From Eledone cirrhosa (Eukaryota), in assembly GCA_964016885.1 (NCBI GenBank), contig OZ024747.1, positions 77,066,001 through 77,130,000 of the forward strand: a stretch of 64,000 nucleotides of DNA. Reading direction: 5' to 3'. Shown one piece after another: positions 16,541 through 63,906 of the stretch (its first letter is position 1; every line of letters begins with the position of its first letter). The notes beneath the pieces are model-generated. The model was not told the DNA's origin and made no database searches. It saw nothing but the letters and a program-made list of their open reading frames with translations. The translations under genes were made by a program, and so were the position numbers.

Positions 16541-16800
16541 AATGATATTAATAAATGGAAACTATATTTATAAAACCATATTTATTCTATTATATATATA
16601 TTTCAAGGGTACCAAAACTTTGGTACGCTCTCATCAGATAAAATACAAAGTTTGTTTTATAAATATTGACATATCCCGGAATGAGACCTTAACGGTTCAA
16701 GTTTTACCTGGATAGAATAAATATGATTTTATGAATATAGTTTCCATTTATTAATATCATTAATATTATACTCCAGAAAACTTATCGAGTGCTTCGAAGA
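16541..16800. mobile_element. Fold-back PLE-type mini-element with hammerhead motif
   Basis: Inverted arms 16541-16589 / 16713-16761; same family as 61143 and 63500. Confidence 0.75.
16583..16645 (-). ncRNA. Type I hammerhead ribozyme motif
   Basis: Minus strand: tattttat-CTGATGA-gagcgtaccaa/ttggtaccctt-GAAA-tatatata-TA-atagaata. Confidence 0.75.
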
Positions 16801-16857
16801 AAGTGAGGATTTTTTTACAAAATGAAAAATAACCGAGGTGTCCTACACGAGTGAAAG

Positions 16858-17103
16858 TATAAGGAAAAATGATGAAATTGAAAATACAACTGGAGTCTTT
16901 TTTTTTTTAAATTATATATATTTATTTGGTTCCTTTACCGGTTTCGCAGTACTTCTGCTTTTCAAAAGTAGAGTTGAGATAGAGGGTCTGTGGTTTTTCT
17001 CATATCTGAGAACTGCAAAACCGGTAAAGGAACCAAATAAATATATATAATCTTTTTAAAATAAGTCTCCAGTTGCATTTTCGATTTCATCTTTTTTCCT
17101 TAT
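16858..17103. mobile_element. Fold-back mini-element with decayed hammerhead
   Basis: Arms 16858-16950 / 17012-17103; minus strand ctt-TTGAAAA-gcag aagta ctgc-GAAACCGGTA-aag (core CTGANGA mutated); abuts (TA)n. Confidence 0.7.
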
Positions 17104-17237
17104 ATATATATATATATATATATATATATATATATATATAAATGAAGTATTTCCGTCAGAAAGGTACAGAAAAAAAGAGTACTCTATGTAGGCTACAGAG
17201 CTTATTAGTTATGTAATAAACAACATGAGATAATTAT

Positions 17238-17298
17238 TTCATTTACCAGTGGTTTCTTGAAGACAGATGCTGTGTCTGTCTTCAGTCGTCAGAATGAA
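17238..17298 (-). ncRNA. Type I hammerhead ribozyme motif within a (TA)n-flanked insert (17141-17345)
   Basis: Minus strand: ttcatt-CTGACGA-ctgaagacaga/tctgtcttcaa-GAAACCACTGGTA-aatgaa; 6-bp stem I, 10-bp stem II, GUA site. Confidence 0.8.
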
Positions 17299-17701
17299 TA
17301 AAAAACATGGTGTATTTATTAAATATGGATTTGAAAACAAAATTATATATATATATATATATATATATATATATATATATTATTTCGTTTCTGAACATTG
17401 GCAACATGACCCTCCCAAAGTATAACAATATATATATTATATATTATATATATATATACATATATATATATGTATATAGATATATATCATTATACACATA
17501 CACACGCACTCACACACACATATCCGGATACATAGTCACACGTGCACACACACACGCGTTCACATCTACATACGCACGCACACATCTAATGAACGAGAAC
17601 GAGTTAAAACCGGAGAGAAATGGAAAGAGTCACAAAGTCATAGAGAGAGAGAGGGGCACACAAGAAGATTGAGAGAGAGAGAAAGAGAGAGTAGGAGAAT
17701 G

Positions 17702-18075
17702 ATATATATATATATATATATATATATATATATATATATCATTCTCCTACTCTCTCTTTCTTAAATATATATATATATATATATATCACTCTCTCTTTTT
17801 CTTAAATATATATATATATATTTATATTACATATATATATATATATATATATATATATATATATATTTATATTACATATATATATATTTATATGTATATA
17901 TATGTATTATATATGTATTATATATTTATGATATATATATTATATATATAGTATATATATTTATATTATATATATATATATATATATATATATATATATA
18001 TATATATATATATTATATATATATATATATATATATATATATATATATATATATATATATATATATATATATATA
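17702..18075. repeat. (TA)n-rich tract
   Basis: Direct reading; (CA)n follows at 18322-18436. Confidence 0.95.
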
Positions 18076-18681
18076 CAAAGATAGAGAGAGAGTGAGTATG
18101 TATGTGTGTGTGTAAGTGAGTGTGTGAGTGTGTGAGCTGTAGTATATAGGTGAGTGGCTTGACTTCTAATGAGCTGTTACAATGAGAATCTAGCTTCCAT
18201 TAGGGATCAGTGAAGTCACAGCTCTGTGCTGAGAATATCGTGACAAAACTGATGATTATTTCACACTTTTTCCTATGCTTGCTTTCCATTTCATTAACTA
18301 CCGCCTTGCTTAAAACACAGTCACACACACACACACACACACACACACACACACACACACACACACACACACACACACACACACACACACACACACACAC
18401 ACACACACACACACACACACACACACACACACACACGCATACTCACAAGGATATACATACATAGATGCATACGTTCGTATATACATACATACTGACAGGA
18501 GACGGATAAACAGACATATACATACAGATGTAAGTACACATACAAGACGCACATAAATGTACACACACACATACACCCACACCCACACACACACACACTC
18601 ACACTCACATATATATATTAAGGAGTATTTTCTGGCATGTTAACATCCTTACATATTGTGTGTATATATATATATATATAT

Positions 18682-18920
18682 GAGAAAACACAGGTAAGCA
18701 TTAAGAGAAGGATTATTTTCCAGGTATTTACGACCGTTTCATTGGTAAGTGCACCCTTAATGCTTACCTGTGTTTTCTCTTTTATACTTTATACTCCAAG
18801 ATTGAACGGAATTCTTACAAACTTGTGGAGTTACCCTTAACCGTACATTGAAACCGTCCATGAAACTGGCTTTCTTGACCACGAACTGGATCACAATAAG
18901 CAATTTTCAGCTTCCCTAAC
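18682..18920. mobile_element. Fold-back mini-element with 3' half of a hammerhead
   Basis: 24-bp arms 18682-18705 / 18756-18779; minus strand GAAACGGTC; bulged hairpin 18793-18831; (TA)n both sides. Confidence 0.6.
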
Positions 18921-19112
18921 TATATATATATATATATTTATATATATATATATATACAAATTCACTTTTTCTTGATGAAGAACTAACGTCAATCTGATGA
19001 GAAATTCTTTTCCATTTTCCACAAGCATGAAATTAATAAGACTTTGTGCAATCTTTTTCGGTGATTGTCTACTTTTTAAATTTGGAGTTATATATAGTCT
19101 ATATATATATAT

Positions 19113-61246: not shown

Positions 61247-61897
61247 AATATGGTTTTATAAATATAGTTTCCATTTATTAATATATTGTATATATATATA
61301 TATATATATATATATATATATATATATATATATATACACACGTATATATGTATATATATATATATATATATATATATATATATATTTATATATATATATT
61401 TATATATAATATATATATATATATATATATATATATATATATATATAAAAGAACGAAAAATCATATATATATATATATACATATATATATATATATATAT
61501 ATATATATATGTGTGTGTGTGTGTGTGTGTGTGTGTGTGTGTGTGTGTGTCTGTGTTTGTTTTTGTTTTGTTTTTTCATTTGTGTGTTAAAAAATCACCA
61601 TTCCGTTTAATCTTATTGCTACTGATTATTGCTGATGTTGCTGTTGTTGTTGTTGTCGTCGTCATCGTCGTTGTTGTTGCTGCTGCTGCTAGTACTCCTA
61701 TGTTTGTTGTAATGCTTCCTTTTCTCTCACCTTGTAATTTATCCTGGAAAATATTTTTAACAATGCAGTAATGTCTTCATGACATAACTGGAATTTATTG
61801 ATTTCTAACATAATAGGAAAGTAGAATATTTGTTGGTGGTTACTTGTAGAGATAATGGTTAAACCTGGGATTCTGTCAACTCAAAACAGACTCGATG

Positions 61898-62430
61898 TAC
61901 TGACTCGAGTTTCAAATGATATTGGAATTTGATCTCAGTCTTCATCCATACATTTCTCTGTCCAGAGGTTCTAACTCGAGTTTCAAATGATAATGGAGTT
62001 TTCCCTCAAATTCTGTCCTCATTTCTCTGCCCAGATGTTCTGACTCGAGTTTCAAATGATAATAGTTTTCCCTCAAATTCTGTCCTCATTTCTTTGTCCA
62101 GATGTTCTCACACGTGTTTCAAATGATAATGGAATTTTCCCTCAAAGTCTGTCCTCAATTCGCTGTCCAGATGTTCTGATTCGAGTTACAAATGATAATA
62201 GAAAGTCTGTCCTCATTTCTCTGTCCAGATGTTCTGACTCAAGTTACAAATTATTTGGGAATTCACTCTCAGAATTCGTTCACATTTCTCTTTACAGACC
62301 TCCTGACTCGAGTTTCAAGTGATATTGGAATTTTCCTTCAGAGTCTATCCAAACATTTCTCTGTCCAGACCTCCTGACTCGAGTTTCAAATAATATTGGA
62401 ATTTCCCTCAGAGTTCGTCCACACATTTCT
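61898..62430. repeat. ~70-bp tandem repeat, about 8 diverged copies
   Basis: ctgactcgagtttcaaatgatattggaatttt...atttctctgtccaga recurring. Confidence 0.88.
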
Positions 62431-62767
62431 TTCTCCACAGGGTAAAACGTAAAAGAGAGAGCCTCTTTACATTTGTCAAAGTATTCATTTTCATATTTAT
62501 GCAGCTTCTGTTAAATCTTGAACTGTTTCTGTATATCAGCTGTCTACTGCACTATTTAGTAGCTAACTGCTTTTCTGATAAATAAAAATATTAACGACCA
62601 CACGCGTTATAGCGCGTTATTCCCGAGAAGTGAATATTTAATATATTTTCAAGATGCATTAAAGCGAATTCGCGTACTTCAAGCTTCAAGTTCGCATATA
62701 AAGCGAACAGAGTGTATATATGTATATATGTGTGTGTATATATATATATATATATATTAATAATAAT

Positions 62768-63045
62768 TATTTCTACTTTTGGCACAAGGCCAGAAATTAT
62801 CCCAGTGTATTACTGGTACTTTATTTTATCGACCCCGTAAGGATGAAAGGCAAAGTTAACCTCGGCGGGATTTGAACTCAGACCATATAGGGCCGTAACT
62901 CTTTGCTTGCAAAGCATGGCGTCCGACCCTCTACCGATACTGCCAATCCACCGCCCTTTTATATTAATAATAATATATTAATAATTGTTTCTACTTTTGG
63001 CCCAAGGCCAGCAAATACCCAGTGTATTACTGGTACTTTATTTTA
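62768..63045 (-). mobile_element. Deu/Nin-type SINE (62768-62956) plus a short second 3' fragment (62985-63045)
   Basis: Nearly identical to 43480-43662. Confidence 0.8.
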
Positions 63046-63113
63046 ATAATATATTAATAATAATATATATTAATGATAATAAAAAGAACGATTTGTTATA
63101 TCTTCATTAGGTT

Positions 63114-63212
63114 TATTGAATAGTGACGCGCGTTTCACTATTGATCAGCTCAAGGTTCGATCTGTATTGATCTGGTCAGACTCTGGAATCAAAAGCTCGT
63201 CGGACTTCAATA
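63114..63212 (-). ncRNA. Decayed hammerhead motif with long stem II
   Basis: Minus strand: tattgaagt-CCGACGA-gcttttgatt...gatcaatagt-GAAACGCGCGTC-actattcaata; palindromic stem III, GUC site, core U to C. Confidence 0.65.
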
Positions 63213-63257
63213 TATATATATATATATATATATATATATATATATATATATATATAT

Positions 63258-63445
63258 TCGAAAGGAAGGTTTTTTTAACATATCCCACACTGGTAAAAAT
63301 ATAGGAGAAACAAGTTGAAAATGCAATTGGAGTCGTTAAGAAGAATTTATTTACAATAATTTAGAACCTGACAACGGGTTGGTTTTCGCTCAGCGATTTG
63401 TAGTCTTGATAACCGCAAACGAGTAACAACCCGTTGTCAGGTTAT
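63258..63445. mobile_element. Fold-back mini-element related to 16858-17103
   Basis: aacctgacaacgggttg / caacccgttgtcaggtt arms; ttgaaaatgcaattggagtc resembles ttgaaaatacaactggagtc at 16878; (TA)n both sides. Confidence 0.55.
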
Positions 63446-63499
63446 ATATATATATATATATATATATATATATATATATATATATATATATATATATGA

Positions 63500-63906
63500 A
63501 AAGTTATATTTAAATTGTTGGGTTACAACTAGTAAATATTTGTAACTGATATAAAAGCACTCGACAAGTATTTGGAGTATATTTACGATATTAAATAAAT
63601 GGAAACTATATTTATAAAACCATATTTATTTCATCATATATATTTCAGGGATATCATATTAACAATATGCTATGCCTTCCTCAGACAAAATACAATATAG
63701 ACAGTTTTATAGATAAATAGATTTGACATACCGTTCAAATACAAGTCGATGTTGAACGGTATGTCAAATCTATTTATCTATAAAACTGTCTATATTGTAT
63801 TTTGTCTGAGGAAGGCATAGCATATTGTTAATATGATATCCCTGAAATATATATGATGAAATAAATATGGTTTTATAAATATAGTTTCCATTTATTTAAT
63901 ATCGTA
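63500..63906. mobile_element. Mini-element containing a perfect 155-bp-arm palindrome with two hammerhead motifs
   Basis: Arms 63584-63738 / 63752-63906, 13-nt spacer; plus-strand HHR 63798-63863 (tattttgt-CTGAGGA...GAAAtatataTG-atgaaata). Confidence 0.85.

Follow-up and report, generated by a model that had tools for sequence, protein, structure and literature searches.

A 64,000-nt stretch of the Eledone cirrhosa genome (contig OZ024747.1, positions 77,066,001 to 77,130,000; hereafter the window, numbered from its first letter) contains a series of short inserts between positions 16541 and 63906 that carry hammerhead ribozyme motifs. We conclude, with a probability of roughly 0.68, that these inserts are the pseudo-long terminal repeat (pLTR) ends of Hydra- and Neptune-type Penelope-like elements (PLEs), made from twin target-primed cDNAs that run off at the transcription start. 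On our best reading, the resulting hairpins are dead-end products and neither random truncations nor self-copying elements. They are ordinary in kind, being members of known PLE clades, but carry a sharp mechanistic footprint in multiple families. A first-pass annotation, made from the letters of the window, had described palindromic fold-back inserts touching (TA)n, and both the fold-back geometry and the (TA)n contact were confirmed; comparison of the window with itself, however, collapsed the inserts into ~10 families, and not ~20, several of them present as fold-backs. Tail arms finished on (TA)4+ in 75 of 85 cases, while the 92 short arms were themselves defined by their (TA)n contact.

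One line of evidence is the inner edge of the arms. For six families we aligned the ends of 30 pattern matches each, always the first 30 along contig C1, giving 180 arms that were ordered by position and not chosen by length, with the reference copies included. Of these, 75 ended within -6 to +10 of one family-specific site (A 20, D 12, H0 16, E 16, B 4 and C 7, out of 30 each), none ended within -7 to -37 upstream of it, 67 ran past -38, and 38 ended further inside, scattered downstream of +10, with 4 of the 38 reflecting alignment breaks caused by internal deletions or divergence. Likewise, genome-wide counts of exact H0 24-mers were 7,701 just inside the site, 2,696 spanning it and 2,541 just upstream, a drop of 65% within 15 nt followed by just 6% over the next 22 nt. 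TATA-type boxes, which have a background of 0.0019 per nt in 3' untranslated regions (3'UTRs), were found upstream of the site at -30/-32 in D (two of three references), -30 in H0, -31 in B and -29 in A2, with CCAAT boxes between -80 and -87 for families A, D and H0 and closer in for E (-52), and B and C begin at a TCACT-like initiator. Furthermore, in each of the six families RNA structure is weaker over the 60 nt upstream of the edge than over the 60 nt downstream of it. In five families the edge precedes the hammerhead core by 6–122 nt, and in A it falls within the ribozyme; this position of +1 within the family A hammerhead accounts for the GAAA "halves" that the first-pass annotation had listed. 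We infer that the edge is the transcription start, or cap, site. There was no pile-up at the predicted ribozyme cleavage site, with only 3 of 120 arms from B, C, E and H0 beginning within 5 nt of it, plus one in the window (16711); the anchors of A and D were placed where they could not sample this site.

The arms also pair by a strict rule. Each family has two 3' start sites, 75–100 nt apart, which give short-start and tail-start arms, and when same-family head-to-head pairs were sought within 1.5 kb, all 52 of 52 combined one of each. Fifty pairs were called by alignment and two by eye (L219, L255), with a doubtful 1.2-kb pair (L187) excluded, and both arms were short in 43, both long in 6, mixed in 2 and unclear in 1. 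A further 13 short-end arms had a tail-only partner, several of them reaching +1, which copying of the partner could not give, and the farther 5' reach may lie in either arm. At two loci (L062:7331–7694 and L065:7136–7334) an RTE-family fragment sits between two PLE arms and is foreign RNA captured during insertion; together with a fusion of a family F arm to a Hydra-type open reading frame (ORF) in L071, these pieces indicate that template switches, or the use of two RNAs, occur.

In the mechanism that we propose, the PLE protein would cut both strands within a (TA)n tract and two cDNAs would be primed inside the 5' pLTR of the element's own RNA, the short site serving one broken end and the tail site the other, probably on a single RNA. 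As only 60–200 nt of RNA would lie ahead of the start sites in the 5' pLTR, both cDNAs would run off at the predicted transcription start, after which their 3' ends would presumably be joined to each other by microhomology, or one of them to the TA target. The hammerhead, positioned between +1 and the start sites, would simply be carried along. Long copies would arise by priming in the downstream pLTR of a read-through RNA, or by a template jump. The short copies lose the TATA box and so are likely to be dead on arrival; since each copy has its own junction and the TATA box is not carried over, the hairpins do not behave as a propagating unit. The model predicts the position of each family's cap site, a strand-specific use of the two reverse transcriptase (RT) start sites, and only infrequent use of RNA cleaved by the ribozyme, and the sharp edge and short/long arm pattern thereby offer a testable clue to how PLEs move.

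Several observations weigh against this interpretation. The +1 sites were picked after the pile-ups had been seen, which leaves just two independent checks, TATA spacing and the counts for H0, the CCAAT boxes having likewise been set out as a check on the edge. No TATA box is present in families E, C and A1, and in one D reference it sits at -24. Nor is there an enrichment of G before +1 of the kind that a cap would leave (A 5/32, D 5/12, H0 2/18, E 3/20; the B row was dropped, being mostly long copies of another subfamily). Arms of B and C are mostly long, with only the 4 and 7 of 30 given above at +1. The first bases of several edges are AT-rich and self-complementary, and microhomology at such edges could sharpen the peak. 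Two C pairs and the E insert of the window combine a long and a short arm, and the 1.5-kb limit under-counts long partners. In the L071 fusion the partner of the F arm is a different PLE, which shows that an insertion can draw on two RNAs. Finally, the protein of Poseidon PAc in vitro shows no difference in start site between strands, as far as described in the available text of PMC11167929.

The main rival to twin priming is a snap-back, in which a cDNA started at the tail site is extended to the end of the RNA, then turns back on itself and serves as its own template as far as the short site. Near-perfect palindromic apices, matching arms, the short-plus-tail rule and correlated arm lengths would all follow from it, and the junction palindromes of Adineta vaga Penelope insertions have been interpreted as self-priming, in that published variant on an antisense template (PMC3846280, from the portion available). 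Those insertions resemble ours in their inverted pLTR, a tail on only one copy and a TATA box with a TCACT initiator in the pLTR, yet antisense self-priming fits our arms less well than a pair of sense-templated cDNAs that stop at the initiator. In a snap-back the short arm must lie within the tail arm, which conflicts with the 13 tail-only partners and with the short-end arm being kilobases longer at window 20030–23458, L142 and L231/232; one-sided deletions, often stopping at +1, would further be required, and we regard a snap-back as unlikely. Slightly less probable still is that the edge marks an RNA processing site, or a barrier to RT or from a protein, inside a longer RNA. The lack of a cap G and of a TATA box in E, C and A1 would suit such an origin, as would the D edge, which coincides with the 5' strand of stem I of the hammerhead, but TATA spacing of 29–32 nt in four families together with CCAAT boxes, the weak structure upstream of the edge and its failure to follow the ribozyme (from 6–122 nt ahead of the core to inside the ribozyme) speak against it.

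The first-pass annotation had offered a choice between extreme truncation and non-autonomous mobility, a choice that misses the main class, whose 5' ends share a fixed, promoter-like stopping point; family F is the only one to fit the non-autonomous option. That the short copies propagate themselves as non-autonomous elements, similar to short interspersed nuclear elements (SINEs) or miniature inverted-repeat transposable elements (MITEs), with internal promoters and mobilisation by PLE proteins, is improbable even though each family has tens of thousands of short copies and one A variant was short in all 16 of 16 focal copies. Junction spacing varies between copies (~7–80 nt in A), the short copies lack a TATA box, and the same A variant is also present in a long copy (L106), whereas for the tandem arrays of F the idea does hold. 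Ordinary random 5' truncation would explain the 38 of 180 arms scattered downstream of +10, but it is contradicted by the steep H0 step and by the empty interval from -7 to -37, and we consider it very improbable.

A more speculative extension is that PLEs replicate through a retrovirus-like strong-stop step with a jump from the cap to the RNA 3' end, which we hold only tentatively and think more doubtful than not. Here RT would start in the 5' pLTR, copy to the cap and then have to jump to matching sequence at the RNA 3' end, where the hammerhead would have trimmed the RNA and formed a terminal repeat; the ~1e5 short copies would be failed jumps, and a successful jump would regenerate the pseudo-LTRs. 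Jumps do occur, given the RTE pieces between PLE arms and the F arm on a Hydra ORF. According to the available text of PMC2377424 no mechanism for pLTR regeneration was obvious, and the origin of inverted and tandem pLTRs and the role of the hammerhead are stated as open questions there and in the accessible parts of PMC8557442 and PMC7761336.

The PLE origin put forward in the first-pass annotation was borne out. Judged by sequence, families A, B, C, D, E and K are supported as pLTR ends of Hydra-clade PLEs with RT and a GIY-YIG endonuclease (EN), and H0 appears to be the end of a Neptune-type PLE, its clade assigned by motifs. RT with a C-terminal GIY-YIG in one ORF was found for A (L385), B (L142, L144, L145 and L154) and C (L373), while the parent ORFs of D, E and K were seen solely as EN or N-terminal fragments. 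The anchors of C, D and E flank Hydra-like ORFs, those of H0 a Neptune-type ORF, and family K overlies a GIY-YIG frame. RWR and DKT (replacing DKG) were present in A and B and RWR in D, a CxCx5C linker in A, B, C and D (the K linker region is frameshifted), and CxxC..E and CxH in A, B, C and E; H0 has a CX4CxxC linker ahead of its C-terminal GIY-YIG (L379, L380), and this position of the EN ruled out a Naiad identity. Of 20 loci taken around EN matches, 13 had the family B hammerhead downstream of the EN, and one B locus (L154) is arranged pLTR-ORF-pLTR. Complete copies have the tail in the 5'UTR, just upstream of the ATG (L142, L145, L154, L386, L390), and an ACTC...GAGT(A/G)C motif recurs, by eye, in the tails of A, B, C, D, E and K. 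The family A protein has a homologue in Argonauta hians, the sole named one among the 120 matches listed, and a Pfam search returned no family for the three PLE EN fragments. Endonuclease matches of family B in open frames of 799 and 750 aa (C8:392350 and C28:61372419) suggest young copies.

We ran a strict type I hammerhead descriptor on the window, with 20 block-wise local dinucleotide shuffles as control, and found nine matches against a shuffle mean of 0.1 (cores 16637(-), 17292(-), 20236(-), 23357(+), 41647(+), 58097(+), 59225(-), 60094(-) and 61189(+)). From their core motifs and three helices the window motifs are type I hammerheads. The 13 sites that it had given as full or decayed were largely upheld by eight strict matches, three genuine but mutated hammerheads (41366(-), stem mismatch; 63798(+), G at the cleavage position; 26347(+), weak stem II) and two variant cores, U3:A8 at 16933(-) and CUGAGAA at 30866(+), whereas 63114(-), belonging to the GIY-YIG-linked family K, has no recognisable core, folds as a plain hairpin over GAAA and is unconfirmed as a hammerhead. 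The U3:A8 core recurs in 29 of 30 H0 copies. Among nine GAAA halves, those at 23505, 42835, 43738, 47430, 58745 and 60255 proved to be ends of only two families, A and D, while 18730, 47610 and 63365 had 0–2 similar copies among the loci compared. Sites absent from the earlier list are 59225(-), 63684(-) and ends of M/N near 41870 and 60870. Strict matches lie in the pLTR of B, C, D and E, and of 28 family A copies, 20 show CUGAGAA and 5 UUGAGAA. The majority A core, as at window 30870, places C3 opposite A8, and the ribozyme of this very successful family is possibly inactive. Minimum free energy folds of monomers recovered stem II or stem I and not the full junction, as expected of dimer-type motifs, and an Rfam scan was uninformative on hammerheads, the best 150 of 327 matches all being microsatellite-driven.

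The hammerhead population is genome-wide and not local to the window. The genome is 3.0 Gb and microsatellite-rich, and in 80 evenly spaced 10-kb stretches (0.8 Mb) we found 74 strict hammerheads against 1, 0 and 1 in shuffles. The population described by the first-pass annotation is real as to its hammerheads, and the window (~140/Mb) is close to the genome sample (~90/Mb). Extrapolation gives ~2.7e5 strict hammerheads, an approximate figure since matches were clumped (41 of 80 stretches had none), and most of this very large number would be passengers. Family ends counted by exact 25–31 nt patterns numbered 30,399 for A, 20,779 for D, 38,524 for C, 13,061 for H0, 1,420 for B, 6,951 for E and 14,930 for F, with 0 matches to reversed patterns for each of the seven; the total of >126,000 exact-match ends amounts to a large fossil record of single insertion events. 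Three long family D copies (L375, L376, L390) hold kilobases of TA/CA microsatellite inside the 3'UTR, and the D element may spread microsatellites that also serve as its targets.

Family F differs from the others. It forms head-to-tail arrays of 2–5 units with a period of ~470–500 nt and an inverted arm, each unit having a type I hammerhead, an internal (TA)n tract and no ORF, and it looks like a separate tandem passenger resembling a non-LTR retrozyme. Short copies of A–E and H0 occur as head-to-head pairs or single arms and not as head-to-tail tandems, with one tandem seen (L032). The L071 fusion (4350–4680) joins an F arm head to head with a family M Hydra-type ORF and suggests which PLE mobilises F. 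Other hammerhead families at 450–520 nt spacing (L071:5268–6069, L061:6464–6986, L081:4395–4839) are possibly additional retrozyme-like arrays. F is like animal non-LTR retrozymes in its tandem non-coding units with type I hammerheads, and differs in its own (TA)n tract and PLE-style inverted arms at the ends, on the text available of PMC7761336 and bioRxiv 10.64898/2026.07.22.740005, both of which have already published pLTR-derived retrozymes; the families other than F, unlike these retrozymes, are not tandem.

Much of the architecture is already known, namely the inverted pLTR, one-sided tail, (TA)n targeting, opposite-strand hammerhead pairs and U3-A8 core. The available text of PMC8557442 describes a Hydra clade of C-terminal EN+ PLEs, including Hydra-1_Obim of Octopus bimaculoides, whose members are biased to (TA)n and have an inverted 5' copy and a one-sided tail. 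Our families share with that clade RWR/RWK, DKT, the CxCx5C linker, CxxC..E, CxH and a hammerhead near the 3' end, canonical in B, C, D and E, as well as these insertion features, and differ in having many families with tens of thousands of ends each, 3'UTRs of 1.1–2.3 kb, tails of 75–100 nt rather than 30–40, and a fixed inner edge that is not described in the parts available. H0 matches the Neptune-clade motif summary of the same source in its C-terminal GIY-YIG, CX4CxxC linker and TA targeting, but not in its U3:A8 core or sharp run-off edge, the clade call resting on motifs. Minimal PLE hammerheads (PMC4209133, in part) likewise have a palindromic helix III, many families per genome, a U3-A8 variant and opposite-strand pairs 100–700 bp apart that were interpreted as truncated PLEs, although the scale here is ~1e5 against ~2,000 + 1,300 for Schistosoma mansoni, and end positions, analysed here, are not analysed in the portion available. 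For Poseidon PAc in vitro, the accessible text of PMC11167929 reports both strands cut and extended, AT-rich targets, use of uncleaved RNA and RT starting at two internal sites that define the tail; unlike there, the two sites are strictly divided between the two arms here. By term search, the available text of an Octopus vulgaris repeat annotation (PMC13282606) does not mention hammerheads, and we found no account of start-site run-off or strict short/tail pairing in a literature search that left most subscription papers outside.

Within the window, two PLE copies retain coding sequence. The family B Hydra-type PLE (20030–23458, plus strand) is a 5'-truncated sense copy with an inverted tail arm (20030–20615), followed by the GIY-YIG ORF (20610–21320) and then 3'UTR, with a TATA box at 23262, +1 at 23293, hammerhead core at 23357 and the short end on (TA)n. 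The family A Hydra-type PLE (29248–30975, plus) is 5'-truncated within its RT + GIY-YIG ORF, other copies of the family extending upstream into RT, and has the CUGAGAA core at ~30870, +1 at ~30915 and its short end on (TA)n. Most top matches to this element start at query base 68, which gave the impression of a fixed 5' end; this was a query artefact, as other copies continue upstream. At its 5' junction lies a 306-bp palindrome (28945–29250) centred on (TA)38, whose arms are not family A sequence; further inverted flank copies occur at 60225–60250/60361–60388 and 56451–56529/59744–59822.

Other 3' ends of family A are an A-related tail arm (42829–42944, plus), a short arm starting at +1/+2 (47429–47489, minus; 47485), a fold-back in which both arms reach +1/+2 with the tail on the right arm (58671–58867) and a 43-nt short arm (60253–60295, plus). 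Family C provides a fold-back (16541–16798, minus) with a short-end arm bearing a full hammerhead (core 16637) and a plus-strand tail arm starting at the predicted cleavage site (16711), a short-end arm with the strict hammerhead at 61189 joined to a tail tip (61142–61288, plus), and a fold-back (63497–63906; tail arm minus, short arm plus) with G at the cleavage position of both hammerheads. A search with window 63745–63906 listed no RNA data set, a result that says nothing about expression. Family D is represented by a mini insert (23499–23572, minus), in which a short-end arm joins a 31-nt tail tip and the arms do not overlap, a fold-back of a short and a tail arm (43679–43847) and a tail arm starting at +1 (58091) with a complete hammerhead (58090–58225, plus). 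The family E fold-back (41316–41851, plus) has its short-end arm on the minus strand and a plus-strand tail arm that runs past +1 (41525) and the CCAAT box. The H0 fold-back, with its putative Neptune-type parent and variant core, spans 16799–17100, its minus-strand tail arm reaching +1 at 17007, while family H comprises a single tail arm with a strict hammerhead (17141–17343, minus; core 17292) and a fold-back with two decayed hammerheads (26199–26500). Family F contributes a microsatellite-rich part of a tandem unit (40998–41245) and a retrozyme-like unit with a strict hammerhead (58918–59610, minus; core 59225), G a short-end arm with a strict hammerhead (59900–60240, minus; core 60094), M a decayed end (41868–42070) with a second at 60873–60990, and K a putative PLE end (63060–63210, minus). 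A small fold-back around 18730 (18681–18920) had one similar locus in the random sample and the insert around 63365 (63257–63442) had two partial matches.

The window also contains other retroelements. An RTE-like long interspersed nuclear element (LINE) at 43918–47275 has its 3' part (43973–44458, minus) inverted relative to its 5' part (44506–47275, plus) and TA tracts on both sides, an arrangement that resembles LINE twin priming. An L1/Tx1-type two-ORF LINE (RVT_1 and zf-RVT) occupies 47729–53271, with ORF2 open for 957 aa, and a SINE-like repeat at 43480–43662 and 62761–63043 has 150 matches in the 0.8-Mb sample.

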